Below the pieces are notes generated by a model that was given only the letters and a program-made list of their open reading frames with translations, made no database searches and was not told the origin of the DNA. A stretch of 64,000 nt of DNA from Stegostoma tigrinum (Eukaryota): assembly GCF_030684315.1 (NCBI RefSeq), contig NC_081377.1:30132001-30196000 (forward strand), given 5' to 3'. Shown here one piece after another: positions 2,040 through 56,264 of the stretch (the first letter of the stretch is position 1; every line of letters begins with the position of its first letter). Both the position numbers and the translations under genes were made by a program.

Positions 2040-3000
2040 AAAAACTGAGAGGACTGCGGATGCTGTAAATCAGAAACAAAATCAGAAGTCGCCGGAAAAG
2101 CTCAGCAGGTCTGGCAGAATCTGTGAAGAGAAATCAGAGTTAACGTTTCGAGTCCGATGACCCTTCCTCAGAACTCATGGTAGCTAGGAAAATGTCAGTT
2201 TATATGCAGAAGATAGGTGGTAAGAAGTAAACAATATATGTGGGAGTAGAGCCCAAAGAGAGAGAGAAGAGCAGTTGGACAGACGAAGGATTGGATAACG
2301 GTCAGGCTCAGAGGGTGAATAGCTGTTAATGGAGACTGTAATGGCTTACAATGGATTGTGTGCAATACAGGCTGTGAGATAACCAGGCCTGGTGCGTGTG
2401 TGGAGATGGTGGTTAAGACATGGGAGCCCTAAAGTTATTAAACTCGATACTGAAAGGGTCCCCAAGCAGAAAATGAGTGTTGTTTGTTCTTTCAGCTTTG
2501 CTGGGGTACTGCAGCAAGCCTGAGACACAGATGTTGGCCAGGGAACAGGGTGGTGCGCTAAAGTGGCAGGAAACTGGAAGCTCTGCCTCATTTTAGCAGG
2601 CAGAGTGTGTGTTCTGCGAGATGGTCAATCTACCCTTCGTTTCTGCAACATAGAGGAGACCATATTTGAGCGCAACAACTACAGTAGACCAGATTGTGCA
2701 GATAAAGTGCTGCTTCACCTGGAAGGTACGTTTGTCCCCTTGGATACTAGAGAGGGAGGAAAGTAATTGGCAGGTGTTACACCTTTGGCAGTTGCAGGGG
2801 AAGGTGTAGTGGGGCTGTTGGAGGCAGGGTGGACCAGGGTGTCCTAGAAGGAGTGGTCCCTGCAGAAGGTGGACAAGGGAGGGGAGGGGAACATGTCTGG
2901 TGGTGGCACCTCGCTGGAGATGGTGGAAATGGCAGCTAATGATCTTCTGGATGTGGATGCTGATGAGACATTACGTAAGGACAAGGGGAACCCCTACGCT
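2040..3000 (-). mobile_element. Degenerate Penelope-like element 3' part (GIY-YIG region plus terminal repeat with hammerhead core)
   Basis: The reverse complement of 2780-2950 resembles the PLE segment 'PSPPLSAFRRDHSL...TFPCN' seen intact at 16640-16750; the terminal repeat is at 2040-2176. Confidence 0.7.
2137..2176 (-). ncRNA. Minimal type I hammerhead ribozyme motif
   Basis: Minus strand GAGTT-CTGAGGA-A-GGGTC(ATCG)GACTC-GAAA-CG-TT-AACTC: 5-bp stem I, CUGANGA, 5-bp stem II, GAAA, loopless palindromic stem III. Confidence 0.75.
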
Positions 3001-5124
3001 ATGGTTGACTGGAAGAGCAGAAGCCTTGATTAAGGTATGTGACCAGGCACAGGGTAGGGGACTAGCTGTGGAAGTACAGCCTGTTTTGTAATACTTGCCT
3101 TCAACGAAGGTTGCATTTTACCTTTTCTCAGTAGTTGCTATGCCCCTGATTTTCTCTCATATCATGTGACCCAGATTATCAACTCAACAAATTTGTGGCC
3201 TCACCCTACACCAATACTGATACAATGGTGTATTAGGGTTGTCAACTCTCCAAGATTGTCCCAGAGTCAGCAGCAATTAAACATTAACATCCTAGGCGAT
3301 GGAGTGAGAAGCCAAGGAGAAAAATCATAGTAGTACTTAAAAATCTCTCACTTTCTTTGAATACTTTTTTTTGACTTTATAAAAATGGAATATTGGCTAC
3401 TTGACAGGGCAGTATTGCTGAAGGCAGGAAGTCATGTGATTAAACCTCCAGGAATATGTCCAGAATTAGCAATCCGATATGTAATGGATGTACTACATGA
3501 TACATCAGCAATGCAGGGAAATCAAGTTAAAAGTACATCATAATTTTAAAGTCTTTTTTAAAAAAAATCTAAAAATAATAAGCTGGCATCAGAAGAGGCA
3601 ATCCTGAAGCTGTCAGGTTATTGGACAAACCTAACTAGTTCACATGTTAAGACATCCTTACCTAATTCGGTGTGCAGTATTCAGTATCTAGACCTACAGT
3701 GTAGTTGACCTTTAACTATCCTCTGAAGTGACAGAGCTGAAACGTTATTCTGGGACATCTAGCTCTGCTCCTATCCTGGTAATGAACATGAGAAGGCAAT
3801 GGCAACAAACAGAAGCACTGTCAGCGTCAAATGGTTCTGAAGATTATTCCTATTTTCCTGAAAATATTAACCTGGTTTCTATTTCCACAGATGCTGCAAG
3901 GACCTATGGAGTTTTTAACAGTAGTTTGTTTTTATTTATTAGCATGTTTGATCATTTTGGTATTTTCTTGGGTCATACAGATTATTTGAAAAGCCAAATA
4001 ACTTGGCTTGCTTGCCAAAGTACTGGAAACACAAGGACCATGAGGGAGAATGAATTATTGCAAGGATAATTAGGGTTTGGTGATGAGTGTCAGCCTTGCT
4101 CAACAATCATCTTGTTAAAAAAAAATGGAAGAAACTTCACTACAACTTTTCCATCACAAGGACTGTCAGCTTCCACCTTCGCAATATCACTCATCTTCTC
4201 AAAACTCGCTATCACTCATCTCCAACTGTTACGTTAGTTCTTCTGCTGCTGAAATTTTCACACTTTATAAATATCAGCTCATCCAAAGCTCTGCTGACCC
4301 ACATCCTCCTCCTTGAACTGCAATGGCTCACGAAACTTTAGCATCTTTAATTTTTCATGCTTATTCTCAGATTTAAATAGACCCAGATGGAAACAGGGGA
4401 ACCGTGGTGCAGCTAGTTTGGGAACTACAGGCCCAAAGTCTTATCGTCTTCCAAGTACACTACATTTAATATGTCTGAACTTGCTTACATACTCAAATGT
4501 TATTTTCAGAAAAAAATCTAAATAAACCAATATTAACTGCTTCTGCCAATTCCACATGAATCTATTTTACGAATTGTCCACAAGACTCAACTGAATTTTT
4601 GAAATGGGTTTAAAATTCAGTTGCTTCAAGCACAGGCCATGACCTCTGGTTCTATTTTTATGAACAATGGGGAAAACAGCTTGTCACTGTTTACAGCACT
4701 TGGATACTTGTGGTTTGTATGGCTCAGTCACTACACCATGAGAACTTATTTCATGTCAGGTGCAAACAGCCTGGCTATATATTTCCTGTTTTTTTATATC
4801 TTTCAGACAGACACACCAAACTGGGTGCTTGTGGCTTTCAGTAGGAAATGCTAACAAAGCTAATTTTCTACAGTTATAATGCCTAAGGCCCTCTTGCGGG
4901 ACAGTGGCAGTGTCCCCAGACTGGGAGGAACAGGTTCAAGTCCCACCTGCTCAAGCGGTGTAGAACATTGCTGACAGTGAAGGACATAGCAGTGCATTCC
5001 AAGTCAGGATCATGTACATCTTGAAAAGCAACCTGCAAGCGGTGGTGTCCTTGCACTAGTTAATGGAGATCAAGGTTTTAGAAAGTGCTGTTGAAGAAGC
5101 CTTGAGGAGTTGCTGCACTGCAGT

Positions 5125-5422
5125 GGGTAGCATGGTGCTTCAATGGTTAGCACTGCAGCTTCACAGTCCCAGGGACTGATTCCAGCTTTGGGTCACTGTC
5201 TGCGTGAAGATTGCATTTACTCCCTACATCCGCATGGGTTTCCAATGGTGCTCTGGTTTCCTCTTACAGTCCAAAGATGTGCAGGTTTGGTTGATTACCC
5301 ATGGTAAATGCATAGTTCTGGTGATAGAGTCAAGGGTTGGGTCTGGATGTGATGCTGCTCATGGGGTTGGTGCAGATTCAATGGGCCGAATGGTATCTTT
5401 CTGCACTGTAGGGATTGTATGA
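5125..5422 (+). mobile_element. HE1-like tRNA-derived SINE
   Basis: Head ggtagcatggtgcttcaatggttagcactgc; body ggtttcctcttacagtccaaagatgtgcagg; tail gggccgaatgg...gggattgtatga. Similar copies at 33275, 33849, 36731 and 37214. Confidence 0.75.
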
Positions 5423-5665
5423 TCTTGCAGATGATTTGGAGGTTGTGAAGAGCCTTACGTGAATGCATGTCTGTTCCTCCTGAAAGGAGCAGACAAGCCT
5501 CCTGTGACACCAGTCAGAACCCATTTCATGCTCTCTTTGCCTAACCTATGCTGCAATTTACCCAGAAGTCCTCAGCGCAGTTGTTTTGTACCTGAAATCA
5601 AAGGCATCCTATTCCTTAATCTGACAATGAGCAATAAATTAAAGAGGAAGGGAGAAACCAGTCAC

Positions 5666-5860
5666 CTGCGTTGCCCGGAGCATGTGGAAGATGTCCATTG
5701 TACGTGCCACAATGTCCTGAACAGTCTCCTGGCCAACTTTGCAGAGGGTGACACATGTGATCTCACGCAGGGCACTTTGAGGCTGCTGTGGGGGTACTGG
5801 CGCTGCGGTCTGAGAGTGTAGGCCAGGAATCCTTGGCCCAGCGCCAGGTAGTGCTGTCAT
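5666..5860 (-). CDS. MED30: MED30-like (Mediator subunit 30) first coding exon, 65 codons; downstream exons not found in window
   Basis: MTALPGAGPRIPGLHSQTAAPVPPQQPQSALREITCVTLCKVGQETVQDIVARTMDIFHMLRATQ matches the recalled MED30 motif (A)REVNTASLCRIGQETVQDIVYRTMEIFQLLRNMQ. Ends at a phase-0 donor CAG|gtgact. A polypyrimidine acceptor tttcttctctag| lies 17 nt upstream of the ATG (exon starts at 5877). Confidence 0.85.
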
Positions 5861-10330: not shown

Positions 10331-10399
10331 GTGAAAAGACAGGCGAGCAGACTATTCATTCCCCCACCGAAAGGCTACATCTAATCTTTGAATGGGCCT

Positions 10400-10815
10400 G
10401 AAAACAAAATAAAAATGTGGCATCCACGGAGACAAAGCAAGCTAACGTTTCGAGACGAAATAAAGTCCAGAGGTCAGAGATGGTGGGAACTGCAAATGCT
10501 GGACAATCCGAGATAACAAAGTGTGGAGCTGGATGAACACAGCAGGTCAAGCAGCATCTTAGGAGCAAAAAAGATTTTCTGATTAAGGGTCTAGGCCCGA
10601 AACGTCAGCTTTTGTGCTCCTAAGATGCTGCTTGGCCTGCTGTGTTCATCCAGCTCCACGCTTTGTTATCTCTAAAGTCTAGAGATCTCTGATGAAGAAG
10701 CTACAGTCGAGACGTTAGCTTGCTTTCTCTCCACGGATGCTGCCTGACCCGCTCTAATCTCCAGCATTTGTTTTGTTTCAGCTCATAGATAGCACCTGCA
10801 GTAATTTGCTTCCTA
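10400..10815. mobile_element. Nested palindromic PLE-derived elements (inner 10473-10672 with 12-bp TSD inside an outer fold-back element)
   Basis: Inner arms gataacaaagtgtggagctggatgaacacagc / gctgtgttcatccagctccacgctttgttatc; TSD taaagtccagag 10461-10472 / taaagtctagag 10673-10684; outer arms gcatccacggagacaaagcaagctaacgt / acgttagcttgctttctctccacggatgc. Confidence 0.8.
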
Positions 10816-11193
10816 CTCTGAATGGGCCTCTTGGTGAGGCCAGGGAGCAGAGCGGCTGACTTGCGCCCTCACTCCCTGAACTCGGCGCTGACCAAAGGTC
10901 AGGAATGTTGGACAGAAGCGGGGTCAGATTGCGAAATAGCTCCCCTAAAGAATACACACTGATTTGAAAACCGGACCCATACACACCGCTTAGGTTACAA
11001 TCAAAGACAGACATTTCTGGAGAAATTCAGCAGCATCTGTGGAGATCTGTTCAGCTTCTCCAACAAGTTGTTTTTATACCAGATTTTCAACAGCGCAGGT
11101 CTTTGATTTTAGTAGGCCGGAATCCGTGAAGTGACTTTAAAAGGAACTGTCAGATAACATTGATCCGTGCAACACGCTCCACTCTAGATTCGA

Positions 11194-11285
11194 GATAACA
11201 AGGTGAAGAGCTGGATCAACACAGCAGGCCAAGCAGCATCAGAGGAGCAGGAAAGCTGACGTTTCGGGCCTAGACCCTTCTTCAA
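11194..11285 (-). mobile_element. Short PLE terminal-repeat insertion with 9-bp TSD
   Basis: tagattcga at 11185-11193 and 11286-11294; the element begins inside the hammerhead core (tgaagaagggtctaggcccgaaacgtc). Confidence 0.75.
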
Positions 11286-14769: not shown

Positions 14770-17633
14770 GATAACAGTGTGGAGCTGGATGAACACAGCA
14801 GGACAAGCAGCATCTCAGGAGCACAAAAGCTGACATTTCGGGCCTAGACCCTTCATCAGAGAGGGAGATGGGGAGAGGGAACTGGAATAAATAGGGAGAG
14901 AGGGGGAGGGGGACCGAAGATGGAGAGAAAACAAGATAGGTAAAGAGGAGAGTATAGGTGAGGAGGTAGGGAGGGGATAGGTCAGTCCAGGGAAGATGGA
15001 CAGGTCAAGGAGGTGGGATGAGGTGGTAGGTAGGAAATGGAGGTGCGGCTTGAGGTGGGAGGAAGGGATGGGTGAGAGGAAGAACAGGTTAGGGAAGCAG
15101 AGACACGCTGGGCTGGTTTTGGGATGCAGTGGTGGGTGGGGAAGAACTGGGCTGGTTTTGGGATGCAGTGGGGGAAGGGGAGATTTTGAAGCTTGTGAAG
15201 TCCACATTGATACCATTGGGCTGCAGGGTTCCCAAGTGGAATATGAGTTGCTGTTCCTGCAACCTTCGGGTGGCATCATTGTGGCACTGCAGGAGGCCCA
15301 TGATGCACATGTCGTCTGAGGAATGGGAGGGGGAGTTGAAATGGTTTGCGACTGGGAGGTGCAGTTGTTTGTTGCGAACCAAGCAGAGGTGTTCTGTAAA
15401 GTGGTCCCCAAGCATCCGCTTGGTTTCCCCAATGTAGAGGGAGCCACACCGGGTGCAATTGATACGATATAACACATTGGCAGATGTGCAGGTGATCATC
15501 TGCTTGATATGGAAGGTCATCTTGGGGCCTGGATAGGGGTGAGGGAGGTGGTGGGGGGGCAAGTGTAGCACTTCCTGCGGTTGCAGGGGAAGGTGCCGGG
15601 TGTGGTGGTGTTGGAGGGGAGTGTGGAGTGGACATGGGAGTCGCAGAGAGAGTGGTCTCTCCGGAAGGCAGACAAGGGTGGGGATGGAAAAATAGCTTGG
15701 GTGGTGGGGTTGGATTGTAGATGGCGGAAGTGTCGGAGAATGATGCGTTGTATCCGGAGGTTGGTGGGGTGGTATGTGAGAATGAGGGGGATCCTCTGGG
15801 GGCGGTTGTGGCAGGGGCAGGGTGTGAGGGATGTGTTGCGGGAAATGCGGGAGATGTGGTCAAGGGCGTTCTCGACCACTGCGGGGGGAAAGTTGCAGTC
15901 CTTGAAGAACGTGGACATCTGGGATGTATGGGAGTGGAATGCCTCATCCTGGGAGCAGATGCAGCGGAGGCGGAGGAATTGGGAATAGGGGATGGAAGTT
16001 TTTCCAGGAGGGTGGGTGGGAGGAGGTGTATTCTAGGTAGCTGTGGGAGTCAGTGGGCTTGAAATGGACATCAGTTTCTACCTCGTTACCTGAGATGGAG
16101 ACTGAGAGGTCCAGGAAAGGAAGGGATGTGTTGGAGATGGCCCAGGTGAACTTGAGGTTGGTGTGGAAGGTGTTGGTAAAGTGGATGAACTGTTCGAGCT
16201 CCTCTGGGGAGCATGAGGCGGTGCCGATACAGTCATCAATGTAACGGAGGAAGAGGTGGGGTTTCAAGCCCACTGACTCCCACAGCTGCCTAGAATACAC
16301 CTCCTCCCAACCACCCTCCTGCAAAAATTCCATCCCCTATTCCCAATTCCTCCGCCTCCGCCGCATCTGCTCCCAGAATGAGGCATTCCACTCCCATACA
16401 TCCCAGATGTCCACATTCTTCAAGGACCACAACTTTCCCCCCGCAGTGGTCGAGAACACCCTTGACCGCGTCTCCCGCATTTCCCGCAACACATCCTTCA
16501 CACCCCGCCCCCACCACAACCGCCCCCAGAGGATCCCCCTCATTCTCACAGACCACCCCACCAACCTCCGGATACAACGTATCGTCCTCCGACACTTCTG
16601 CCATCTACAATCCAACCCCACCACCCAAGCTATTTTTCCATCCCCACCCTTGTCTGCCTTCCGGAGAGACCACTCTCTCCGCGACTCCCATGTCCGCTCC
16701 ACACTCCCCTCCAACCCCAACACACCCGGCACCTTCCCCTGCAACCGCAGGAAGTGCTACACTTGCCCCCACACCTCCTCCCTCACCCCCATCCCAGGCC
16801 CCAAGATGACCTTCCATATCCAGCGGATGTTCACCTGCACATCTGCCAATGTGTTATATTGTATCCACTGCACCTGGAGTGGCTTTCTCTACATTGGGGA
16901 TACCAAGTGGAGGCTTGGGGGCTGCTTTACAGAACACCTCCGCTCGGTTCGCAATAAACAACTGCACCTCCCAGTCGCGAACCATTTCAACTCCCCCTCC
17001 CATTCCTCAGACGACATGTGCATCATGGGTCTCCTGCAGTGCCACAATGATGCCACCTGAAGGTTGCAGAAACAGCGACTCATATTCTGCTTGGGAACCT
17101 TGCAGCCCAATGGTATCAATGTGGACTTCACAAGCTTCAAAATCTCCCCTTCCCCCACTGCATCCCAAAACCAGCCCAGTTCTTCCCCACCCCCCACTGC
17201 ATCACAAAACCAGCCCAGCTCGTCCCCTCCCCCCACTGCATCCCAAAACCAGCCCAGTATGTCTCTGCTTCCCTAACCTGTTCTTCCTCTCACCCATCCC
17301 TTCCTCCCACCTCAAGCCGCACCTCCATTTCCTACCTACCACCTCATCCCGCCTCCTTGACCTGTCCATCTTCCCTGGACTGACCTATCCCCTCCCTACC
17401 TCCTCACCGACACTCTCCTCTCCACCTATCTTGTTTTCTCTCCATCTTCGGTCCGCCTCCCCCTCTCTCCCTATTTATTTCAGAACCCTCTCTCCATCCC
17501 CCTCTCTGATGAAGGGTCTAGGCCCGAAACATCAGCTTTTGTGCTCCTGAGATGCTGCTTGTCCTGCTGTGTTCATCCAGCTCCAGACTTTGTTATCTTG
17601 GATTCTCCAGCAACTTCGGTTCCCATTATCACT
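14770..17633. mobile_element. Head-to-head (fold-back) Penelope-like retroelement with RT C-terminus and GIY-YIG endonuclease; 16-bp TSD
   Basis: Left arm (minus) has RT 'FLRYIDDCIG' and 'LPFLDL'. Right arm ORF 16407-17060 has 'CNRRKCYTC' and 'NVLYCIHC...LYIGDT...EH...VANHFN'. TSD gatacatgtcatcccc at 14754-14769 and 17634-17649. Confidence 0.92.
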
Positions 17634-19150: not shown

Positions 19151-19163
19151 GTTAATTACTTGC

Positions 19164-21691: not shown

Positions 21692-21842
21692 CAGAGATAG
21701 TAGGAACTGCAGATGCTGGAGAATTTGAGATAACAAGGTGTAGAGCTGGATGGACACAGTAGGCCAAGCAGCATCTGAGGAGCAGGAATGCTGACGTTTC
21801 GGGCCTAGACCCTTATTCAGACCCTTCATCCAGCTCTATATC
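21692..21842 (-). mobile_element. Short PLE terminal-repeat insertion with small inverted end and 14-bp TSD
   Basis: tgggcaaattatct at 21678-21691 and 21843-21856; contains gctgacgtttcgggcctagaccctt (hammerhead stem II/GAAA, reverse complement). Confidence 0.8.
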
Positions 21843-22634: not shown

Positions 22635-24627
22635 CTTCAGGACACCAGGAGAAGAGCAAAGTTCATTCATATAAAATAATTTGTCAGAACGTCGTACAGG
22701 AAATCTCAAATTTACAATACTAGTAGATAGCTATTGCATCTCAACTAAATGTAATGTACGGAAGTACAAACATCTCAGATTTAACAAAATCCTTCCAGAA
22801 ACCAGATCGAACTTAACATGCCAGCATGCCTTGAGAAGTTAAGGATCAGATTTCTGCAGTAACCTCTGTACGGGACTACGGAATTACTGTGGTTTCATGG
22901 TATTCATCGAAACATGAGCAAAAGCAAGCCTTTCAGCACCTGGAACCTGCTGTGCTATTCCACACAATGGCTGATCATCTGCCTCAATGCAACTTCTCAC
23001 TTATTTCACAGGATATGGGCATTTAAGTTTAATTTTGAGCCCACATCTCCAGAGCACTGATTTGCACATCTGGTTTGCTAGTCCAGTAACATTACCACTG
23101 CATTAACATCTACTACTCAATCTTGTCTTTATTGGCTAGGCCAACATAAATTGCCCACCCCTGATTGGCCAGAGGGCAGTTTTAAGTAATTGCTGTGGGT
23201 CTGGAGCCAAATGTTGGCCAGACCAGGAGAGGATGGCCATTTTCTTCCCCAAAGGAAGAAATGAATCAGATGTGTCTTTTCCCAACAATCAACGTTTTTA
23301 TGGTCAACCTTAAATTGTTAAGTACAGACTTGTTTTTATTGACAAAAGATTGCATCATCTACCAAGGTGTCTTTTGAAGCCAGAACATTACCTGGATTTC
23401 TAGATTAACAGTCTAGTGAGAATACCATTACATCATTGCCTCCACATACCCCTCGATGTCATTATTGTTTGAAATTTATTGCTTCTCTTGAACAAACTCA
23501 ATTACTGAGTTTCTGCTGTCCTCTGGGGATACAGCATTCCAAAGATTCACTATCCTCTGGGTAAAGAAGTTCCTCATCTCAATCCTAAACAGCTTGGCCC
23601 TTATTTTGAGTGAGGTCTCCCCCAAACCTCAAGCCAGTTTTAGACCATCCTACATCCACTCCCAACCGAGAAAAAGATCCTTTGTGCATCCACTCCATCT
23701 AATCTAAATATTGATACCAAAGAGGTCCAGACTACTACTGCATAAACATCTGTCATTGTCTGCACCAAGCTAGAAAATCAAGCTGATTAAAAGTGGTTAA
23801 TGATATCAAGACTGGAAAACCACAAGGCTACAGTTGGGACACATTTTAGATAAAGGAGTGGACCTGGAGAAATGCCACAAAAACAAACCTTTAAGATGTT
23901 ACATGATGAGGAACTTCTGCAATGCAATCCTGCTGATAATGATATCGAAGCCTACTGGTTACAGAACAGGAAAAGAGATGCCAATGACAGATAATCACTC
24001 ACATGGTCTCAGACACACACATATTGGGAGTCTAGCTCAGTTTTCAGCAACAAACGCACAATACTGTCCCTGCCCTCAGCAAATAGCACATAAAACCTCC
24101 AGAAGCAAAACTAGTCTTCATAATCAGCTTCAGCAGGAAGAATAAAAACAAAAATATTTTAAATCAAATCGGATTTGACACTTAAAGCAGATAATTCACA
24201 ACACTCAAAATGAACCTTACCATCTCAATTTCAACTCATTTAGGATTGATCATTAATGGTTTCTCTATATCAATCTCCTGTTTCTTTACCTATGCCTAGA
24301 TCAACCTCTTTTTGCTCTACACCATTATCAATTTTAGTCATTTTATTTCCTGTATCATTGGAATTTCTATTCATTCTTTGCTATCCTTCACTTGGTCACC
24401 TTACCCTTTCTTTGCACTGATATAAAAATTGTTATATTTCTAACAACTTCCAGTTCTGACAAATGACCATCAACCTAAAGATTTGTTTTTTTCTCTCTCT
24501 TCTCAGGTCACCAATTAAGACCAAGAGTTTCCCATGTTTCCAGGATTCACAACATTTTACTTTTCAATTTCTTTTGCAATTTGGCCCACAGGGATCATGG
24601 GCAGCTTTGAAAAGGAAAAGCACCCAT

Positions 24628-25511
24628 TTTTCAAGGACCACAACTTCGGCCTCACAGTGGTCGAGAACACCCTTGACCGTGTCGCCCGCAACTCATTCCT
24701 CACACCTCTTCCCCGCAATAACACCTGCCCCCACACCTCCCGCCTCACCCCCATCCCAGGTCCCAAGAAGACTTTCCACATCAAGCAGACGTTCACGTCA
24801 CCTATGCTAATGTGGTATACTGTATCCGCTTTTCCAGATGGGCCTCCTCTACAATCGGGGAAACCAAGCAGAGGCTTGGGGACCGCTTTGCAGAACACCT
24901 ATGCTCAGTTTGCACCTCCCAGTCATGAACCATTTCAACTCCCCCTCCCATTCCTCAGACGACATGTCTATCCTGGGCCTCCGGCAGTGCCACAATGATG
25001 CCACCTGATGAGTTGCAGGAACAGCAACTCATATTCTGCTTGGGAACCCTGCAGTCCAATGGTATCAATGTGGACTTCACAAGCTTCAAAATCTCCCCTC
25101 CCCCTACCTCATCCCAAAATCAGCACAGCTTGTCCCTGCCTCCCTAACCTGTCTTTCCTCCCACCTATCCCGTCCTCTCACCTCAGGCCCCACCCCCATC
25201 TCCTAACTACTAACCTCATCCCGCCCCCTTGACCTGTCCGTCCTCCCTGGACCGACCTATCTCCTCCTTTACTCCCCACCTACACTCACCTTTACTGGCT
25301 CCAACTCTGCCTCTTTGACCTGTCTGTCTCCTCTCCACCTATCTTCTCCTCTATCCATCTTCAATCTGCCTCCCCCTCTCTACCTATTTATTTCAGAACC
25401 CCCTTCCCCATCTCTATTTCTAAAGAAGGGTCTAGGCCCGAAATGTCAGCCTTCCTGCTCATCTGATGCTGCTTGGCTGGCTGTGTTCATTCAGCTCCAC
25501 ACCTTGTTATC
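24628..25511 (+). mobile_element. Internally deleted Penelope-like element 3' part
   Basis: Colinear with the 16420-17597 arm (FKDHNF..VVENTLDRV..., TCPHTSRLTPIPGPKKTFHIKQ); ends at accttgttatc. Confidence 0.85.
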
Positions 25512-29094: not shown

Positions 29095-29321
29095 CATGGT
29101 GCTATTAAAAGAGCAAAGATTAGTCCTGCCTACTGTCCTGGTCAAGATTCATATCTCAACCAATATCATGTAGCAATTATCAAGTTCCTGTTTGTGTGAG
29201 CTTGCTGCGCACAACTGTCAGCTGCATTTCCCATATTACCACAGTGGTTACACTTCAAAAATTGCCTATGAAGTGCTTTGGGGCATGCTAAAGATGTTAA
29301 ATATACCAGATATTCACAATA

Positions 29322-29600
29322 GATAACAAGATATAGAGCTGAATGAACACAGCAGTCCAAGCAGCATCAGAGGAGCAGGAAAGCTGACTTCAGAAATGTC
29401 TACGCCCAAAATGTCAGCCTCCCTGCTCCTCTGATGCTGCTTGGCCTGCTGTGTTCATCCAGCTCGACATCTTAGAACATAGAACATTACAGCACAGTAC
29501 AGACCCTTCGGCCCTCGATGTTGTGCCGACCTGTCATACCAATCTGAAGCCCATATCTTGTCATCTCAGATTCTCCAGCATTGGCAGTTCCCACTATCCC
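29322..29600. mobile_element. Palindromic PLE-derived element with an inserted SINE/LINE tail fragment
   Basis: Arms gaacacagcagtccaagcagcatcagaggagcagg / cctgctcctctgatgctgcttggcctgctgtgttc; insert agaacatagaacattacagc... at about 29473-29550. Confidence 0.7.
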
Positions 29601-30794: not shown

Positions 30795-31008
30795 TCTAAA
30801 CAAAAAAAACTGCAGATGCTGAAAATCCAAAACAAAAACAAAAATAGCTGGAGAAACTCAGCAGGTTTGGCAACATCTATGGACAGAAAACCGAGTTAAT
30901 AGTTTTGGTCCAGTAATCCCTTTTCAGGATTAAGCAGTACACAAAATGTTAACTCTATTTTCTCTCCACAAATGCTGTCAGAGCTGCTGGGTTTCTCCAG
31001 CAATTTGA
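30795..31008. mobile_element. Palindromic PLE-derived short element (old)
   Basis: Arms gctggagaaactcagcag...gagttaa / ttaactc...ctgctgggtttctccagc. Confidence 0.7.
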
Positions 31009-38520: not shown

Positions 38521-41084
38521 GAAAAAGAAATGGTATGGATGAATTATAGCAGATCAGAGAAAGGTTATGACTGATACCTGCAAGGGTGGGGGTGGGAAGT
38601 TTATCTTATGAGGAAAGGTCGGACAGACCAGACCTGTATCAATTGCAGTTTAGATGAATAAGAGGTGATTTTATTGATAATCATAAGATCTTGAAAGACC
38701 TTGACAGTGTGGATGGTGAAAAGATGTTTCCGCATGTGGGAGAGACTAGAATTAGGGAATGCAGTTTAAAGATAAAAGGAGAGGTTCTTGAGTCTTTGGA
38801 ACTCTCTTCCATCAGGAGAGGTGGCAGCGAGGTCTTTGAATATTTTTAAGGCAGAAGTCAATACAGTCTTGGCTAACAAGCAAGTCATAGGGCATTGTGG
38901 TTGGCAAGAATATGAATATGATCATAATCAGATGATCCATGTTCTTATTAAATGGGGCAGCAGATCAAAAGTGACTGAATTGCCAACTCCTCCTAATTGA
39001 CATGTTCCTGTGACATTATTAAACAACATTTGACAAAGAGACACATTAAGACGATATACAATTGGAACTGTTCTCCTTGAAGAGAGGTCTGAGAGGAGAT
39101 TTGATAGACATTCACTGTGACAAGATGTCTGGATAAAGTAGATAGGGAGACACCATTGAGAATGACAGCAATCAGATTTAAGTTAAACCACAAAAGGAAC
39201 AATGATGACAAGAGGAAATACATTTTCATGGAGTAAATGTTTACGCTCTAGAATGCACTGTCTGTGACAATGGTGCAGCCAGGATCAATTGAGATCATTG
39301 GCTGAAAAAGAAAAATTTTGCAAGTGTGCAGGAAGATGGCCAGGGAGTGGAACTTGGCGAAATGCTCCTTCATGGTGCTAGCACTCCACAACAGGTTGAA
39401 TATCCACGTGTTATGCTGTAACTGTCCTGTAATGCTATATTACTAAAACTGATCAAAATTCTGGTAAATTTTAAGGTGCATCTGAAAAGAAGATTGAGGG
39501 AGAATTCTGAAAGAGTTCTGAAGAAGGGTCTAGGCCTGAAACATCAGCTTTCCTTCTCCTCGGATGCTGCTTGGCCTGCTGTGTTAATCCAGCTCCACCC
39601 CTTGTTTACTTAAAATCATGTATGGGCTACAGTTAGAATTGGGAGGGTGTCGTAGACAGAGACTTTTATATTTGAATTGTGAACTTTTCATGACCTCCAG
39701 CCATCTGAATGTGCTTTACATGTTTACACAATGAGTATGTTTTGAAGTCTAGTTACTAGCGTAATGTATATCTCAAAGAGTTGTGCTGGAGGGAGTTACA
39801 GTAAAAGGAATGTAGGAAGTAAGAACAAGAGTATGTCATTAATTTGTCAAATCTACGTTGACAGTCGACTAGATCGTAACCGATCATTTACCTCAAAGCC
39901 ATGTTCCTGCATTAACCCATAGTCCTTAATTTCTTTAATGCCTGAAAATCTATAATGTCTACTTTAATCTCAATGGTTCAGCTTCCACGACATTCTAGAG
40001 TAAGGAATTCCAAAGGTTCAAAAATAGGAATGGATAAGGCCCCTGAAGGGATACAAAACCAAGGTGAAAATTTTCAACTAAGGACAACCAGATCAGTAAT
40101 AACTATCCTCTACTTGGGGCAATTAAGACATTGAAAGCAGCTTTTGACGAAGTCAAATTTGAGTTGTATTAACTACTAGAGATGGAAAACTGGCAAAGAA
40201 GGCATTTTATTACTCAAATCTAGGGATAACAAATGCATGGATGAGAGTTCCAGTAGTGAATGAACTGAGGCAACAGTGTTTTGAATTGGCAACACAAACA
40301 AACCATAGAGCCTAAAGGGCCAGTGACATTGTTTATTTTCACACAGGCGTTCTCCCACTCTAGATCATTTCATCCTATCAGCATATTATTCTGCTCTTCA
40401 TTTTCTCCCTCTACTTATCTAACTTCCCCTTCAACGTGGATATGCTGTTCATTTCAACTGGTCAGTTCCATGAACTGAGAATTACACAGAGGCCTTTAGT
40501 CATTTTCCCTGTTGACCAAGGCCATATAATCCACAAAGCACTAAGTTGAAAGGACTCTTCATTATGAAATACAGTCTCAAGCGTTGTAAATATTAACTGT
40601 TCAGCATGCAGTGTTTGCAAAGGTACCACCCAATTTCTATTAGTTTTAAATGACCATTCCTTGTGAAAGAATGTGCCTGACATCACTGGGAGAAAGACAA
40701 AAACAGAAACTATTCTAGCAGATCTGCTCAGTTGTGCAATTTATCCAATGAAAACCTGTCTTTTGCCTTTATATTGCAGCAAATTGATCTGAGATTTTCT
40801 CTCTGAAATGTGCACTGACCCATTCCTTTAGGAAGACCCTAAAAACTAACCTCTTTGACAAAGTTTCTCAGTCATGTGCTCTAAAATCTCTTACCTTGAT
40901 AGATACAAAATTTTGTTTGATATTTCTCCTGTGAATTTTGGAATATTTTTACTTTTGTAAGGCACCAGATAAATGCATGCTGTTCAATACTAGTGAAGTT
41001 ACTGGTAGACTAGTGATTCATAACCAACACTTAACTTCATCTGTTAGACTTTTCAATTGTTTCTTTTTCTTTTCACAGTATGGT

Positions 41085-42055
41085 TGCTGAAGATCTGAAA
41101 CAAAACCAGAAATTGCTGGTAAAGCTCAGCAGGCGTGGCAGCATCTCTGGGAAGAAAACAGTTAACGTTTTGAGTCTGGTTTACTCTTCATCAGAACTGA
41201 GCAGCTCAGAGAATGTGGTATTTCTGCTGAAGATGAGTTTGGGGAATGGGGGATGGGGGAGAGATGAGCAGATAGGTGGAGTCAAAGCCCAGGGAAAAAT
41301 ATATGAAAGGGGTGTCAGATGAGGGAAAGTGAGATGTTGTTCTTTGAGCATTGACAGCAACTGAAATGTTTGCATGGTATCCCTGTGATGCAACACTTCA
41401 GACACAGGCCTGCAGCAGTATTCTAGCTAGCCTCAGTCCAAGCTCAAAGAACAGCATCTCATCCTCTGCTTGGGGTCCCTGCAGCCTCTAGAGCTCAGAG
41501 AAAAATTTCAGAGAATGAGTCTGTCTTCCTGTTATTTCACCTACGTCCACATGCAGTCCTGTCATGACATGGATTGCTTTCAGCATAGCCTTTCTATTCT
41601 CAACTACTGTCTGCTCTCATTATCTATTTATTCTGAGGAAGGGCCACTGGGCCCAAAATGTTAACTCTGTTTTTCCCTTCAATGATGCTGCCAGACCTGC
41701 TGAGCTTTTCCAGTAACTTTGTTTTTGTTCCTGATTTACAGCCTCTGCAGTTCTTTCGGTTTTTATCTATTTATTCAAGTTCTCTTCTGTACTGGCTTAC
41801 TATCAATAATTTCCTCATTTGCCCACCCCTTTCATATACATGTCTCTCTCTCTCTGTCTCTCTGGGTTTCATCTCCATCTATCTGCTCACCTCTCCCCAC
41901 TCTGTCCGTACCCCATCTTCAGCAGGAATACGACTTTTTCCTTGCTGCTGTTAGCTCTGATGAGTAGTCACCAGATTCAAAATGTTAACTTCATTTTCTC
42001 CCCACAGATGCTGCAGCCCAGCTGAGTTTCATCAGCAGTTTCTGTTTTCTTGTTT
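41085..42055. mobile_element. Compound fold-back PLE relic with three decayed hammerhead-like cores
   Basis: 41090-41320 is an inverted repeat of about 41820-42055; cores at 41159-41199 (-), about 41630-41668 (+) and about 41955-41990 (+). Confidence 0.7.
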
Positions 42056-44704
42056 CCATGTGGTTTATTGGAATTGATAAGTTAATGGAATAGTTCTTGA
42101 GAAATTTCTGTGTGACAAATAGTATAATAGCAACATTTTAAAAAAACATTCAGATAGGTACATGGATGGGAATGGTTTAGAGCAATATGGACCAAATACA
42201 AGCAATTGGAATGAGCTGAGTGGGCACCAGGGTCAGCATGGACCGAGTTGGGCTGAAGGGCCTGTATTACTCTATGACTCTGTGACTATGACTAGATGTC
42301 TTAGAGTAGTTTTGCTCTCTTACCACTTATGATGTAAAATCTTACAGAAGCTTGAATGATGTGGGCTATGGCAAGAAATATTGGAGAATCATCTGAGAAG
42401 TCAGGCAATTTTTTTTCAACAGATTATCTGGTCATTATCAGGTTACTGTTTGTGGGAGTTTGTTCTGTGTAAATTGGCTGCAACATGTCTACAGTTCAAC
42501 AGTGACTACATTTCAAAACTATTTCATTCGCTATAAAGTGCTTTGAGATGTCTTGTGGTCATGAAAGGTGCTATTTAAATGCAAGTCTTTTATTTTTTTC
42601 ACTAGTGGCCTTTTCTCACTTCTGGCTTAGTCCTTTCTGTATCATTTCCATGCTTTCTTATTTTCTTCGCTGATCTTCCAAACCTGGTCCTGAGTTGATC
42701 AATTTCTCTCTGAACCTTTCTTGCTATTTGCTGGTCAACCATTCTGGTGGTTGGCAGAATGATTAAATTCATCTCTGAAGCCTGCATTGCCAGGAACATG
42801 GAACATAGAAACAGGATTAGGCCTTCAGCTAGTCAACCTTAATCGTCTACCCCAACTGCAATTCCCATCTAATCCCCATATCTCTAGGTTCCCTACGTGT
42901 TCAAAATCTATTGATTACTTTACATAAAATAGTCAATGACTAAATTGATCGATGATTGATCCATACCCCTCTGCGATGTGGATTCAAAGGATTCTCTGAG
43001 TGAAGCCATTCCCCTCCTCTCCATTGTATGTGGTCAATCCTTCATCCTGATACTACAAGCATATGTTTTCTAGACTCCAGGCAGTAGAAGTAACTACTTA
43101 CCATCGACATAACATATCTTCATAAGTTAACTCCTGAAGACAACCTATCATTCTGGTGTTGTTTCTGAAGAAGTGTCTCTAGACTTAAAATGTTAACTCA
43201 TCTTTCTCTCCACAGATGCAGGCAGACCTGCTGATGTTTTTCAGCAAATTTTGATTTTTCTTTTATCTTTCTGGTGATTGATGTTTGAGGCCATTCTGGT
43301 CTTCCTAAGGTGATATGTCTAGTCCTGAACATGATAATATGGAAGATCAATAAATTGATCAAAGGCGATTGCACATTTTGCCTGGAAATTTTTTACTTCA
43401 TCACAAACCAGTTATTAGAAGAGTGGGAAGCACTGAAAAAGAAAACAGCTAAAAATATCCAAGAAATTGAGGTAAACCAGAGAAGGTCATATAGAGATAA
43501 GTTTATTGATATGGAATAATTTCAAACAACATACAGGCATGAAAATGAAGTGACTATCATAATGGAGCTTTTAAACTGACATCTCAGGAATCTGCTACGA
43601 CTAAAAATCTGTTCTTCAAAATAGTAATTGACTTGCCACCTACTTGCACCATTTTCTATTTCTTATTTCAAGTCTCCAGCGTTAATTCATTTAATTTTTT
43701 AGAATGATCTGATAGTTTTAATATTTCCTTGTTTCTTTGCTCTACATTTGCCGCCTTTAATGCATTCAGTTTTCATTTAGTGATACTGAGAGCTGTGGTT
43801 CTCAAACTGGGGTCCCAGGGATTTAATAAAGTCTTTTCAGGTACTGTGGGAAAGAAGGTAAAGGGGATCTATTGCTGTGATGATGTGAGCCTGGCATACA
43901 CTGTTGGCTATTATTTTGGTTGCTTTGGATCTTCTGGAGGGACAAATCTGAGAGTTCACTCACTGTAATAGGATTAGCAGGGATTTGGACAGACTGAAAA
44001 TCCCAACAGTGCAGGTAAGAGATAATGGAGGGACCAGGAATGGGTTCCTGGGTCTGAACTCAGGAAAGGGTATGAAGGAGTTGCTACATCAACCTTGTCC
44101 AGAGGATCCAGAAAGACAATCAATCAGTGATGCAACTGGGCTTTAAGTCAGAACTAGAGAAAAGCTACAAAGCCCTTTAATGGGGATACAAATTAATTTT
44201 ACTTGCAGAAATGCCAAAATGAAAGAAGTTTATACTGTGAGAATTCAGATAGGACGAAGGGGTCTGTGATGACTGAAACCATTTGCAAAGGGGATTTACA
44301 AGCAAAAAAGTCCATGAACTAGTGACTTATGGAAGCATCTTTGCCTATCACTAACTGGGGATTGCGACAATGTAGTGCTTCAAGTAAAAATCTAATGGAA
44401 TAGCAGACATATTGCAGATGGTGGACTTAAGCTATGCTGAATGCTAAGTCTCATTGTTTAAAAAAAATACAATGAATTATCAACCCATTGTATTATATAC
44501 AAAAATAAGATATAAAATGTACAAAACCCTTAATTTTGCACCATATAAAAACACTTGTTTTTGTTTTTTTTTAAAGACAGTTTTATGAACAAAAAGAAAA
44601 TTGTTGAACAAGTTGGACTTCTTCTTCAGCTGTCTGTGATTCAGGGGGAGTGAGATAATCCCAAGAATTCACAAAAGACATTCCACGTCATCACCACAAT
44701 GGCG

Positions 44705-44715: not shown

Positions 44716-44841
44716 CTGTAGGACAGAGCATGAAACAAACATTATCACTATGCTATTTCCCTTGCTCAGAATTTCTCATAACCCTTGCAGCATCCCTCAT
44801 CTGTCTCTGCTGGAAGCCCCAACCATTGCTGAGTTTCAGAT

Positions 44842-45020
44842 TCAGAAATCACACAACATCAGGTTATGGTCCAACAGGTTTATTTGAAATCACAACCTTT
44901 CGGAGCGCTGCTCCTTCGTCTGGTGAAGCTTGTGATTTCAAATAAATCTGGTGGAGTATAACCTGACGTTGTGTGATTTCTGACTTGTCCACCCCAATCC
45001 AACACCGTCACCTGCACATC
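44842..45020. mobile_element. Palindromic PLE-derived element (third family) with central hammerhead-like core
   Basis: Arms tcagaaatcacacaacatcaggttat...atttgaaatcacaa / ttgtgatttcaaat...ataacctgacgttgtgtgatttctga; centre on the minus strand is ccagacga-a-ggagc(agc)gctcc-gaaa. Confidence 0.8.
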
Positions 45021-50871: not shown

Positions 50872-51354
50872 CTGTGGAAAGGAATAGAAAATTGATTAGT
50901 TATTTGAAGATTTCATCCTGTAATGTAAAGGAAATCTTTCACAGTAAGTGATAAATCTGATAGTGCATTTAGAGCAAAATATCAGCTTCTACTTTGACTT
51001 GCATCTGATCTCTCTCCTGTCTTGTGAAAGACATTTTATACGTTTAACAGATTTCTTGGGAGGTAGTTAGCAGCATCAGGGGTAAGACGTTGGGAATATA
51101 AATATTAAGTACTATCAGCTTCCTGAAGACCTTCAGTGGTTTGACTCTGTATGGTACTGAACCGTATCTGGACGAGGGGAGATTGCAACATTGGAAACTC
51201 TATGGAGTTGTTTACTGTGGATTTGGGCGGTAGTTGTGGGTTAGAATTGCACTTCACACTTCAGGGACAGAGAGGTAGATTTTTAGTGCATAAAGTGTAA
51301 TAGGACTCAGGCGAAAATGCTACTCCTCAAGCCACCAGTGGTATTGTGTTTCAG

Positions 51355-51795
51355 GACTTCCACAAGCTTCAAAATCTCCCCTCCCCCTACCGCAGCCAAA
51401 AACCAGCCCAGCTTGTCCCTGCCTCCCTCACCTGTTCTTCCTCCCACCTATCCCCTCCTCCCACCTCAAGCCCCACCCCCATCTGCGACCTACCAATCTC
51501 AACCCGCCCCTTCACCTATCCGTCCTCCCTGGACTGACCTATCTCCAAACTACCTCCCCACCTACACCTACTTTACTGGCTCCATCCCCGCCTCTTTGAC
51601 CGGTCTGTCTCCTCTCCACCTATCTTCTCCTTGATCCATCTTCTATTGACCTCCCCCACTACCTCCCTATTTATTCCAGAACCTCCTCTGCCTCCCCCAT
51701 TTCTGAAGAAGAGTCCAGGGCCTGAAACGTCAGCTTTCCTGCTCCTCTGATGCTGCTGGGCCAGCTGTGTTCATTCAGCTCTACACCTTGTTATC
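51355..51795 (+). mobile_element. PLE 3' fragment
   Basis: ggacttccacaagcttcaaaatctcccct...ctgaagaagagtccagggcctgaaacgtcagc...accttgttatc. Confidence 0.85.
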
Positions 51796-51966
51796 ACTAA
51801 TATTGTGTGATGAACTGCCCGGATGTAAGCAATAGGCTTTGTGCTGGTATAGAATCCAATAGCAACTCACAACTATGTCCATAAGTGGAACTGTGCATTA
51901 CTGAGCAGAACATCACAGCGGTGAGTCTGTTTGGGGAAGGCAATACAAACTGTAAATGTCTCTTAC

Positions 51967-52200
51967 CACGAGAAAGGAAGCTATTCCAGGTTCCTCCATG
52001 AATTGAATTGCATTTTCTATCAGTTTAGAAGATGCCTCTAGATGCTCTTTGTGCTGCCTGATCAGATCTTTGATGAATGCAACTCTGTCCTCCTGTTCTT
52101 TTGTAATTGATTGAAGCATGTCATTTTTCCTTTGCTCCAGAATAGTGTATAACTTGTCAAACTGTTCCATGAGCAAGTGTTTCTGATGTCTGCTGTTCTC
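51967..52200 (-). CDS. TRIM63: TRIM63 exon 5 (234 nt), coiled coil
   Basis: cctcag|GAG...GTG|gtaaga; ENSRHQKHLLMEQFDKLYTILEQRK...IENAIQFMEEPGIASFLV. Confidence 0.95.
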
Positions 52201-53428: not shown

Positions 53429-53524
53429 CTCAATGCTTTTGCATGTCTCTTCCAATTGATCAACAATAACCTGGACCCTGTCGTTGCCAGCCACAAGCAT
53501 CGCAATTCCATCAGTCAGTTCTGT
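53429..53524 (-). CDS. TRIM63: TRIM63 exon 4 (96 nt)
   Basis: ccgtag|ACA...GAG|gtacag; [32 protein letters not shown]. Confidence 0.95.
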
Positions 53525-54571
53525 CTACGGAAACACAAGGAGAACATACATGTCAGAAGAACAGACAGTTTTAAATAATTCACTATCCTGTAATAGGTAG
53601 AATAGGGTCTGAAATAGGAAATCAGTTCTATTCTGCAAACATTTCTGCAATTGGCAAAAGATGGTCAGGTTTTGCTACATCTTAGTACCAGTATGGGCCC
53701 CAGAGCAGAAAGGATCAGGTACGTTTCTAGAGGATGTGAATGTAGTCACTTCTAACTCAATAAAAGTTAACAATAGCTACCTATGACAGACTGACTAGGG
53801 ATGGCCATGATTCAGTGAGTAGCACGTTGATTCCCTAGAAGGGCCGGGGTTCAAATCTGTTCTAGGCAACTGAACAAAAATCTATTCTGACATTCTGGTG
53901 CAGTACTCAAGGAGAGCTGCATTGTCAGAGGTGCTGACCTTCAGATGTGCCTGAAGCCCTGCCATTGTTTCAATAGAAGAACAATAGGATAGTTCGCCTT
54001 GATATCCAGTTACTGCTGATTAATTTAAGTGAATGAAAATATTACCTGGTCTTTATCACATTTTAGTTTCTGAGAACTTTCTGTGCATTAGTTATTTGTT
54101 GTATTTCCTGTGATATAACAGTGACTGCACTTTACTAGTATGGAATTTCTGTAACACACTTCGTGATGTTCTTAGATCATGAAAGCTGCAAAAGAAATGC
54201 AAGTCCTTCCTGGCCCAGTGACTCACAGCAATTAAAGGACAGACAAGTTGAAGCAAAAATAATGCCAATGCTTTCAAACTAAAATTTAACAAGAAACTTG
54301 TTTCTCTTGCTTATAGAATAATATACAATCTGAGTAACTAGGTAATAAGTTAGCATTTTGAAAATGTTATGGCATAGCATTTTAACAATTGTAATACACC
54401 CTTGATACGAGCCCTGAAGTGAAATCAACAGCCAATTCTTCTCTGTAGGACAGAAGTAGTTTATGCCCGAGAAGGAAAGCCAGTAACCCTGGTGAATGAG
54501 ACATACTGGTCCAATTCATCCAATATACTTCAATATAGAGGACTGATACAGCCAGTACATTCATTTCCAAT

Positions 54572-54838
54572 TAAAAACCAAAAGAACTGCAGATGCTGTA
54601 AATCAGGAACAAAAATGGAAGTTTGCTGGAAGAGCTCAGCAGGCCTGGCAGCATCTGTGAAGAAAGGATCGGAGTTATTGTTTCAGGTCCACTGACCCTC
54701 CCACAAAACTGGGCTTTCCCTAAACTTCCTCAGTTCCAAGGAAGGGTCACCAGAACTGAAACATTAACATTGATTTTTTTTCTTCACAGGTGCTGCCGGA
54801 CCTGCTGAGCTTTTCCAACAACTTCTGTTTTTGTTCCT
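54572..54838. mobile_element. Palindromic PLE-derived element (second family) with decayed hammerhead cores
   Basis: Arms aggaacaaaaatggaagtttgctggaagagctcagcagg / cctgctgagcttttccaacaacttctgtttttgttcct; likely TSD tacattcattt at 54556 and 54838. Confidence 0.8.
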
Positions 54839-55843
54839 ACATTCATTTCTAAGCTGTCTTTTTACTAGGATCCCACATTGCATTTACTGCTACTTTCCAA
54901 CCTAACTGTGATAATAACATAGCTCTTGTGCTCCCCAGTGGGGGTTGGAGAGGTCGGTACTCTGTTTGCCCACAGGCCAGGCCTGAGGTAGCAGAGTTCA
55001 GCCACATGGTGGCAGTACATTTGGTTTGTCTGCCCGACAGTTCAGCAGAGGGGAAATCCAACCAGGGGCCCTTTTCCTGGTTATGATCATTGAATCCAGC
55101 TGGAAACTGACAGCGTTTGGACAAGCTCGAGTGCTTCTACAGTGACCCTCAAACAAAAATAACTCTCCCAGCATTTTTGTCAGTCTGACTGAGGAAGCGT
55201 ATGGTCACAGTTGATCATATCTGCGACCCGCTGTGCAGCTGTGGATGGCACTGTCATACAATTCAAGGAGACCAAAGCAGGTTTTGCAAAGTACAATGCA
55301 GCTTAAATTTCTCCAAGTAAGCAGGCAGACAAGCTGAAATGTGGGAAACCATAGCTGTGAAGAATTCTCTCCTCACTTCCCCCCCAGCCCAGCTGTCGCA
55401 CTGCGACACACGTACTAAAATTAGCCAGAGCATCAAGAGGGTTTATGCACAAGGTTATGTTAACCCCTTGTTGCCCGGGTGTTGCTAATTGCTACTTTAT
55501 TCTGGTTGAACACAACAGGTTTACGTTTGCATGCCATTTGAGCCAAACGCTACGTACAAATTTCCTGTCTTATTGTTTTCCATTCCTCAGCTACATTTCC
55601 TCAATTCCCTTCTCTTTCCTGTCAGGTTATGGATTCATTATGACATGGAATGCAGTCACTTGGCTTATCAGATGCATGCTTTTATATCATTTTATCCCAC
55701 TATTTCATGGCCAGAGCTATGCATGTGGTCGAACCAAAGCTCTAAGCAAGTTTAAGATAATTTCTCTGCATTGAATTCCAATCCTCATTAAAATGAACCC
55801 CAGTGCTTTGATTGTACATTTTAAAGGAGTAGTTAATATGACT

Positions 55844-56264
55844 AGCCCAGCTCTTCCACTCCCCCCACTGCATCCCAAAACCAGCCCAGCCTGTCTCTGC
55901 CTCCCTGACCTGTTCTTCCTCTCACCCATCCCTTCCTCCCACCCCAAGCCACACCTCCATTTCCTACCTACTAACCTCATCCCACCTCCTTGACCTGTCC
56001 GTCTCCCTGGACTGACCTATCCCCTCCCTACCTCCCCACCTATACTCTCCTCTCCACCTATCTTCTTTTCTCTCCATCTTCGGTCCGCCTCCCGCTCTGT
56101 CCCTATTTATTCCAGAACCCTCACCCCATCCTCCTCTCTGATGAAGGGTCTAGGCCCGAAACGTCAGCTTTTGTGCTCCTGAGATGCTGCTTGGCCTGCT
56201 GTGTTCATCCAGCTTCACGCTTTGTTATCTTGGATTCTCCAGCATCTGCAGTTCCCATTATCAC
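55844..56264 (+). mobile_element. Young 5'-truncated PLE with 13-bp TSD and intact hammerhead core
   Basis: agttaatatgact at 55831-55843 and 56265-56277; CTGATGA-A-GGG(TCTAGG)CCC-GAAA-CG-TC at 56138-56165. Confidence 0.9.

Follow-up and report, generated by a model that had tools for sequence, protein, structure and literature searches.

Minimal hammerhead cores on Penelope-like insertions with recurrent ends in a 64-kb window of the Stegostoma tigrinum genome

The window analyzed here is the whole of a 64,000-nucleotide stretch of Stegostoma tigrinum contig NC_081377.1 (assembly GCF_030684315.1, positions 30,132,001 to 30,196,000 of the forward strand). It spans parts of two host genes on its minus strand, an SLC30 zinc transporter with exons at 20.3-29.9 kb or more and a TRIM gene (RING and B-box) with exons at about 46.5-60.4 kb, and it is strewn with minimal hammerhead ribozyme cores carried by insertions of Penelope-like elements (PLEs) and their apparent kin. 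Taking the C3 position of each core as the reference point from which offsets (e.g., C3 +92) are counted, we found 20 cores, or one per 3.2 kb of this window. Ten belong to family A (10579+, 11285-, 14859-, 17506+, 21820-, 25420+, 39518+, 51703+, 56138+ and a more decayed one near 29391+), eight to family B (2171-, 41194-, 41633+, 41957+, 43165+, 54736+, 54706- and 30927-), one to family C (44923-) and one to family D (10689+). An earlier note on this DNA, made from the letters alone, had listed 16 sites, all of which carry the hammerhead motif; the family D core was absent from its list. An iterated profile of core plus tail gave 28 matches in the window, five of them older remnants.

The window was searched with a strict descriptor of the minimal type I hammerhead, a check that the earlier note had itself put forward, consisting of CUGANGA, a stem II of at least 3 bp, GAAA, a Watson-Crick 15.2-16.2 pair, UH and a stem I of at least 2 bp. 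Two sites satisfied the descriptor with no mismatch (2171- and 56138+, the same two that had been called intact) and seven with at most one mismatch, compared with none in each of 30 dinucleotide shuffles of the window and a mean of 0.03 per shuffle, respectively. The CUGANGA and GAAA boxes and the UH cut site of the PLE minimal hammerhead are present, intact in two cores and within one change in seven. The intact family B motif (2137..2176, minus strand) has 5-bp stems I and II and a GUU cut site, and the intact family A motif (56136..56167, plus strand) has a stem I of 2 bp, a stem II of 4 bp and a GUC cut after 56165. With two of the 20 cores intact, the collection is mostly fossils. Decay had been attributed to the CpGs of CGAAACG, and a hand count over 17 A and B copies bears this out, with 19 of 34 core CpG sites changed versus about 11 of 170 other conserved core positions; the CpG observed-to-expected ratio of the window is 0.27. 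Neighboring cores on the same strand (10579 with 10689; 41633 with 41957) are all damaged. An Rfam covariance search of the window returned no hammerhead among its 12 matches at E up to 10, the matches being chance microRNA-like hits that fall on head-to-head pairs; the window motifs are without loop 3.

Families A, B and D share a homologous 100-nt tail, such that a family A profile finds family B and vice versa, with the same 28 matches. Family A comprises two subfamilies, and short copies occur in both and match the long copies of each. The palindromic 15.2-16.2 positions without loop 3 read CG in A, B and D and GC in one relative from outside the window (L021); family C most likely also has GC rather than the shared CG as its stem III, because its inverted arm shows AAGCTT. 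What the earlier note had recognized as PLE-type features, namely a minimal type I architecture, an additional A and a palindrome in stem III, agrees with the published description (PMC4209133). The proposal of at least three Penelope-derived families holds for A and B, which are tied to PLE open reading frames (ORFs); C is one insertion without an ORF link. The 5 bp of stem II claimed for C do pair, but its core is decayed (U4 is changed, and the core reads GAAA-GG-TT) and a single insertion in the window does not make a family.

The Penelope origin of family A is seen in a head-to-head insertion at 14770..17633, whose two 1.3-kb arms contain a reverse transcriptase (RT) core, thumb, Cys linker, GIY-YIG and 3' untranslated region (UTR). 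This insertion holds cores 14859- and 17506+ (one CpG change each), a 16-bp duplication, and a short tail on the left and a long one on the right. Cores 14859-, 17506+ and 25420+ are preceded on their own strand by RT core, Cys linker and GIY-YIG. The PLE protein encoded at 16263-17057 shares 82%, 80% and 59% identity with zebra shark, whale shark and bamboo shark proteins, respectively. For family B, the decayed 3' part of an ORF (thumb, Cys linker and GIY-YIG remnant; 2386..3222, minus strand) is found upstream of the 2171 core on the same strand, with about 215 nt between the two, and follows a whale shark protein in one frame (34% identity, E 2e-24); judged by this match, family B belongs to a second, older PLE. 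These same-strand ORF remnants establish the Penelope derivation of both families, which for B had been assumed. In A and B, a single ORF ahead of the pseudo-LTR (long terminal repeat; pLTR) encoded RT and then GIY-YIG; the window pieces are weak in Pfam (E 0.019), where relatives score better. A CX2-5CxxC linker between RT and endonuclease (EN) is present in A and in the B remnant; it is also found in Nematis and, under the definition in PMC8557442, points to the Neptune clade. For D and C, a Penelope origin is proposed from architecture only, D having the shared tail and a duplication and C the head-to-head layout alone, and no ORF remnant lay beside either among the tblastn matches of 50 relatives. 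A full-length copy in partial tandem with a 5' pLTR was seen in two relatives (L002 and L038) and nowhere in the window.

The other family A insertions range from core-plus-tail pieces to copies with upstream sequence. A 92-nt insertion at 11194..11285 (minus) starts at C3 and has a short tail and a 9-bp duplication, and one at 21692..21842 (minus; G8 changed) has a long tail, an 18-nt inverted arm and a 14-bp duplication. The short copy at 39516..39610 (plus) carries two CpG changes. Copies of the second subfamily lie at 24624..25511 (plus; EN remnant, decayed core, short tail, 7-bp duplication) and at 51350..51800 (plus; 3' UTR, decayed core, short tail, 8-bp duplication). The copy at 55844..56264 (plus) has a 3' UTR, the intact core, a long tail and a 13-bp duplication, and lies antisense in an intron of the TRIM gene. 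Head-to-head short insertions of family A are found at 10476..10672 (G8 of the 10579 core changed; one long and one short tail; 12-bp duplication) and 29318..29599 (core decayed), the long arm of the latter being interrupted by another repeat. This is an 85-nt insert (29473-29557) with a short repeated end, which we take to resemble the reversed 3' tail of a CR1-type long interspersed element (LINE). The insertion at 10476..10672 sits exactly in the junction of the family D head-to-head insertion (10401..10818; core decayed; 14-bp duplication with one mismatch), which it splits, a PLE nested at its own pLTR.

Family B is represented by the long tail after the cut site of the 2171 core (2040..2141, minus), two copies with upstream 3' UTR at 41082..41295 (minus; G12 changed) and 41859..42055 (plus; core decayed), and short insertions at 41631..41762 (plus; starting at C3 -2 to +1, long tail, 14-bp duplication) and 43162..43263 (plus; short tail, 13-bp duplication with one mismatch). 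Its head-to-head insertions lie at 30798..31007 (core decayed; 7-bp duplication) and 54571..54837, where both cores start about 5-7 nt before C3 with one long tail, one short tail and a 12-bp duplication. The family C head-to-head pair occupies 44835..44985, with a decayed core, stem I CAC/GTG, a 5-bp stem II and no convincing duplication. At 3833-3905 (plus) there is an older core, which has GGTT/AACC as its stem I along with the shared tail and, together with remnants at 1761+, 10997-, 32290+ and 56818+, suggests further, older families.

In order to characterize insertion ends, flanks were scored for target duplications against 300 random pairs, and contigs of four public sequencing runs, two of them from other organisms, were aligned to 55830-56310. 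Duplications of 7-16 bp (identity about 0.97) score at least 7 in 13 of the 15 insertions tested versus 12 of 300 random pairs, using boundaries refined after a first pass. In that pass, with looser boundaries, 8 of 20 tests scored at least 9 versus 7 of 300 random pairs; it was the sole pass covering B copies 2171, 41194 and 41957, for which it showed no duplication. The 3' ends fall in two places, C3 +92 and about +125 to +130, and the gap of about 35 nt between them is the known PLE tail. Among the best 24 of 1,321 loose-end rows (the best six per run), long mixed flanks appear in the outside contigs behind 56230 in 4/4 runs (1,742, 526, 98 and 29 contigs) and behind 56262 plus a few shared letters in 3/4 runs (1,116, 53 and 36). 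In every one of the seven head-to-head insertions of A, B and D, one tail is long and the other short (with soft assignments for 21820 and D), an outcome expected about 1 in 130 times under independent choice. The inverted 5' copy, optional 30-40-bp tail at one end and target duplication that characterize EN-positive PLEs are all present.

We consider it likely that these insertions are the 3' ends of Neptune-type PLEs, retrotransposed each with a minimal hammerhead, and that the short copies were probably primed internally on uncut RNA and may then have been completed by run-off. The starting point is observed, in that RT and GIY-YIG remnants precede the A and B cores on a common strand and target duplications flank insertions. 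The two 3' end positions are likewise observed, and as they match the two internal RT start sites of the anole element (PMC11167929), we infer priming inside the tail as their cause. One end of each kind per head-to-head insertion would be expected if both target strands were nicked and primed; two cDNAs, primed from the two target ends, one per tail site, would then join head to head. The template RNA was very likely uncleaved, because copies extend across the cut site and show no accumulation of ends at it. The ribozyme itself would, judging from the literature, work in dimeric form on tandem RNA of its own element, together with the protein of that element, and the dispersed copies would be passengers decaying at CpG.

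The 5' ends are equally confined. In all ten short copies of A and B, homology to long copies reaches no more than 0-7 nt beyond C3 on the upstream side, with upstream local scores of 10-21 compared with 28-96 between long copies, and the C insertion begins at C3 -3. Eight copies extend at least 100 nt upstream of C3, and none is clearly intermediate. The best-supported 5' pile with long unrelated flanks in the outside contigs is at 56137, one base before C3, in 4/4 runs (1,074, 383, 53 and 32 contigs, the first being the same-species run), and an opposite-strand joint 56137-56186 also occurs in 4/4 runs. It is very improbable that this boundary is an alignment effect, produced by a conserved core and tail with upstream sequence that differs among many unseen families. 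The same edge is indeed visible between invertebrate families, and depth at 56085-56135 collapses in the two other-organism runs, but duplications directly adjoin the core at 11285, 41633 and 43165, the sequence upstream of C3 at five more sites is the inverted arm of the same insertion, and the loose ends agree only 0.37-0.43, near unrelated AT-rich flanks. A splice acceptor at the boundary, as in D. virilis, was considered and not supported, as B has AG at -3, A does not, and the flanks share no exon. An extra G at the 5' junctions, as a trace of a cap, was not seen in the three cleanest copies.

We give slightly less than even credence to the idea that the RNA began where the 5' ends pile up, at C3 -7 to 0, with the short copies as run-offs. 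A transcript starting at stem I would carry core and tail in its leader, where priming would give run-off copies of 90-130 nt, and priming at the downstream pLTR would give long truncated copies; with core and tail both in the leader and after the ORF, short and long copies without a middle class would therefore result. More tentatively still, the element RNA may start inside stem I, with an initiator-like +1 four bases before C3 in three family sequences, in which case about a million "strong-stop" by-products would populate carpet-shark genomes and the uncut ribozyme would serve as a leader that the enzyme copies through to its end. The sequence YYANWYY, which we take to be initiator-like, occurs in family B and in the second A subfamily with its A at -4, and the first A subfamily reads what is presumably a TCT-type motif with its C at -4, both being degenerate consensus matches that lend little weight. 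If this is true, each short insertion records the start site and which of two priming sites served each target strand, and the genome as a whole would preserve a fossil record of a mechanism that has hitherto been observed in a single in vitro system.

In the main rival account, the boundary would instead be set by structure if the enzyme stalled, or if the cDNA folded back and was then trimmed or joined, at the base of the hammerhead hairpin. In every family the boundary does fall close to the outermost helix, which closes at C3 in A (the trap hairpin), at -5 in B (stem I) and at -3 in C (stem I), and inverted junctions show short matches of the core 5' box to tail letters (at 21820 and the 56137-56186 joint). 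However, an enzyme moving 3' to 5' would presumably have unwound the hairpin before C3, the family B boundaries are scattered from 0 to -7 rather than fixed at -5, and eight copies pass the site by at least 100 nt, and we regard this account as rather unlikely.

Another rival makes the short copies a separate non-autonomous class, whether resembling short interspersed elements or retrozyme monomers, descended from short masters that the PLE enzyme moved in trans. Joints from 56262-56265 back to 56133-56137 in 13 and 6 contigs indicate that tandem 130-nt units exist, and a 2026 preprint derives tandem retrozymes from pLTRs, found in one cartilaginous fish (10.64898/2026.07.22.740005). Such a class is nevertheless improbable: the window contains no tandem unit, seven short copies carry the inverted two-ended PLE structure, the unit length varies with the tail site, and many masters would be needed because short copies follow both A subfamilies, B and C. 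Retrozyme-type tandem units with a complete hammerhead each were rejected as a candidate, with none in the window and rare tandem joints in the outside contigs.

Several points weigh against internal priming and run-off as laid out above. No full-length shark element was present in the data examined. In D. virilis, the start site is not at stem I but farther upstream, by 46 nt plus an intron of 75 nt (PMC4209133). Only two of nine invertebrate second copies start near C3 (L011 at +1 and L023 at about -6), the remainder starting at -46 to beyond -300. The 13/15 duplication figure uses boundaries refined after the first pass, and the duplication test found none for 39518 or C. The absence of ends at the cut site (after 56165) refers to the best 24 of the 1,321 loose-end rows. 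The 56137 pile is partly divergence from the reference, since its consensus ends in second-subfamily letters, and its position is approximate; cross-family alignments also begin at C3 -1 to -6, because the core is the conserved part. Finally, the covariation of the invertebrate motifs described below is partly built in, as these were chosen by a descriptor demanding 2-3 pairs.

Predicted folding separates the two intact cores. For 2171-, the hammerhead (-10.1 kcal/mol) is within 0.3 of the best fold (-10.4 kcal/mol). For 56138+, a register-shifted hairpin is preferred over the hammerhead (-11.4 versus -3.6 kcal/mol), with the CUGAUG box pairing with CGUCAG across the cut site, and two 56138+ copies folded together prefer an inactive duplex (-38.0 versus -5.5 kcal/mol). 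The earlier suspicion that family A, with its 2-bp stem I, may be inactive is borne out by this placement of 56138+ in an inactive hairpin, and the folding models would favor self-cleavage in B and disfavor it in A. GUU cut sites such as that of 2171- cleave more slowly than GUC. The family A tail (56138-56215, plus) contains a near complement of the CUGAUGAA box about 45 nt past the cut site, which is the junction match at 21820, shows no covariation at N7, and could hold the family A core inactive. Over 12 nt, family A stem II and its loop (56146-56157, plus) are complementary to themselves if G-U pairs are counted, which gives the motif another palindrome next to stem III, one that is missing from families B and C. 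A special fold of the shared tail was not established, with z-scores of -1.4 to +1.3 in eight folds and two consensus helices without double changes, and the candidacy of the tail as a conserved ORF start was rejected because A and B do not keep the same frame downstream of their common ATG.

It is extremely unlikely that the dispersed copies are active ribozymes retained to cut host transcripts. Two intact cores and the near-optimal hammerhead fold of 2171- are what such a role can draw on, against 18 of 20 cores damaged, mostly at CpG, and a 56138+ core that is antisense to its host gene and prefers the register-shifted hairpin. In PMC4209133, single minimal hammerheads did not cleave and dimers cleaved weakly; the anole hammerhead needed the PLE protein for activity (PMC11167929); and eight of nine frog dimers did not cleave, with one doing so (10.64898/2026.07.22.740005).

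Relatives from invertebrates and metagenomes (L-numbered loci) were picked for having an ORF, so that lone short copies could not enter. The hammerhead descriptor is satisfied at 18 of 79 loci, and the motif lies within 900 nt after the ORF in 12 of 38 relatives with room for it. Over 4 window and 12 invertebrate motifs, 93% of 128 stem I and II cells pair, with 44 double changes affecting 7/8 pairs and 0/500 shuffles reaching the observed pairing; the claim that stem II differs yet still pairs across families is sustained by these values, which are partly built in. The extra base after A9 and the G10.1-C11.1 pair are constant, with A and G invariant and the pair kept in 16/16 motifs. In full-length relatives the first ATG lies at +29 (L002), +3 (L004) and -19 (L009) relative to C3, so that the core sits at the ORF start or ahead of it. 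In L002 (1028-1060) it is at the cut site that the ribozyme and the first in-frame ATG overlap, and in L004 (323-330) this overlap falls inside the CUGAUGA box; cleavage would therefore remove or split the start codon. In L046 (3748-3785), stem III of the hammerhead contains a palindromic insert of 6 nt, and the motif is found 1.5 kb past the end of the ORF. The family A/B/D pattern had 0 matches in metagenome contigs and 0 in prokaryote genomes, and a shorter hammerhead pattern found five viral loci, which were set aside as none satisfied the descriptor.

With a genome size of 3-4 Gb, and if this window is typical, extrapolation gives about a million cores genome-wide, of which about 10,000 to 400,000 would be intact. 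In the same-species run, 225,127 contig records fall on the 481-nt family A stretch, which indicates abundance and gives no copy number, and summed contig depth over 55830-56310 was excluded as a copy-number measure. The density appears far above the counts in PMC4209133, where 4,000 and 9,000 hammerheads (the latter in Xenopus) are called remarkable. Sharp insertion ends, which the earlier note did not contain, carry mechanistic information, and the sharp 5' boundary gives a single-base prediction; the route of PLE transposition and the role of the hammerhead are described as open questions in PMC8557442 and PMC11167929.

Other repeats were also observed in the window. An integrase remnant is present at 27822-28349 (plus; Pfam rve, E 0.002) and a LINE-type RT remnant at 62147-62557 (plus; RVT_1, E 5.5e-06). 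Two pairs of direct repeats, each 99% identical and about 1 kb apart (11817-11927/12762-12872, 111 bp; 45236-45308/46530-46602, 73 bp), represent recent duplications or assembly effects.

In comparison with known systems, the motif, host element, tail and inverted arms are already in print, and the class is known; what is added is its extension to carpet sharks at high density. The literature searched, which did not include Repbase, Dfam or subscription journals, contained no description of hammerheads on shark PLEs or of 5' ends that fall at the core. The work of Lunse et al. (2017) on PLE hammerhead dimers, covered in the review PMC6765202, may bear on novelty. A whale shark preprint describes Penelope expansion in introns (10.1101/443036). 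Minimal hammerheads in the pLTRs of metazoan PLEs were described by Cervera and de la Pena in 2014 (PMC4209133), and the shark motifs resemble them in being type I with an extra base after A9, G10.1-C11.1, a palindromic 15.2-16.2, no loop 3 and a short stem I, as well as in having several families per genome, mostly as single copies on truncated PLEs with some close opposite-strand pairs. They differ in their stem II of 4-5 bp, and in the available parts of that paper no shark is named in the text, six shark and skate names are absent from one of two supplementary files, and insertion ends are not described.

Animal non-LTR retrozymes (PMC7229834; 10.64898/2026.07.22.740005) are likewise short, non-coding, pLTR-related and equipped with a type I hammerhead, and occur in a cartilaginous fish according to the preprint. 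They form tandem repeats of 150-400 nt that yield circles, whereas the shark copies lie dispersed, singly or in head-to-head arrangement, as insertions of 90-130 nt that carry duplications and extend across the cut site. The Neptune-clade EN-positive PLEs of Craig et al. 2021 (PMC8557442) share with the shark elements the RT, Cys linker and C-terminal GIY-YIG, 5' truncation, the adjacent inverted copy, the 30-40-bp tail at one end only and the hammerhead in the pLTR. The shark copies differ in having clear 7-16-bp duplications without microsatellite targeting and in the clustering of their 5' ends at the hammerhead, which the portion of that paper at hand does not mention.

The mechanistic parallel is with PAc, the Poseidon element of Anolis (Frangieh et al. 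2024, PMC11167929), whose protein initiates within the RNA, favors an uncleaved template and works on both target strands by nicking and extending them. PAc belongs to another clade, its ORF starts inside the hammerhead with none evident in the shark tail, and no 5' pile-up at C3 is reported in the available text. The shark insertions resemble PAc in the two internal start sites that define the tail, the priming of both target strands, the uncleaved RNA template and the lack of ends at the cut site. They place these features in a second clade, and in a genome, where copies span the cut site and use two priming sites, one of each per two-ended insertion.

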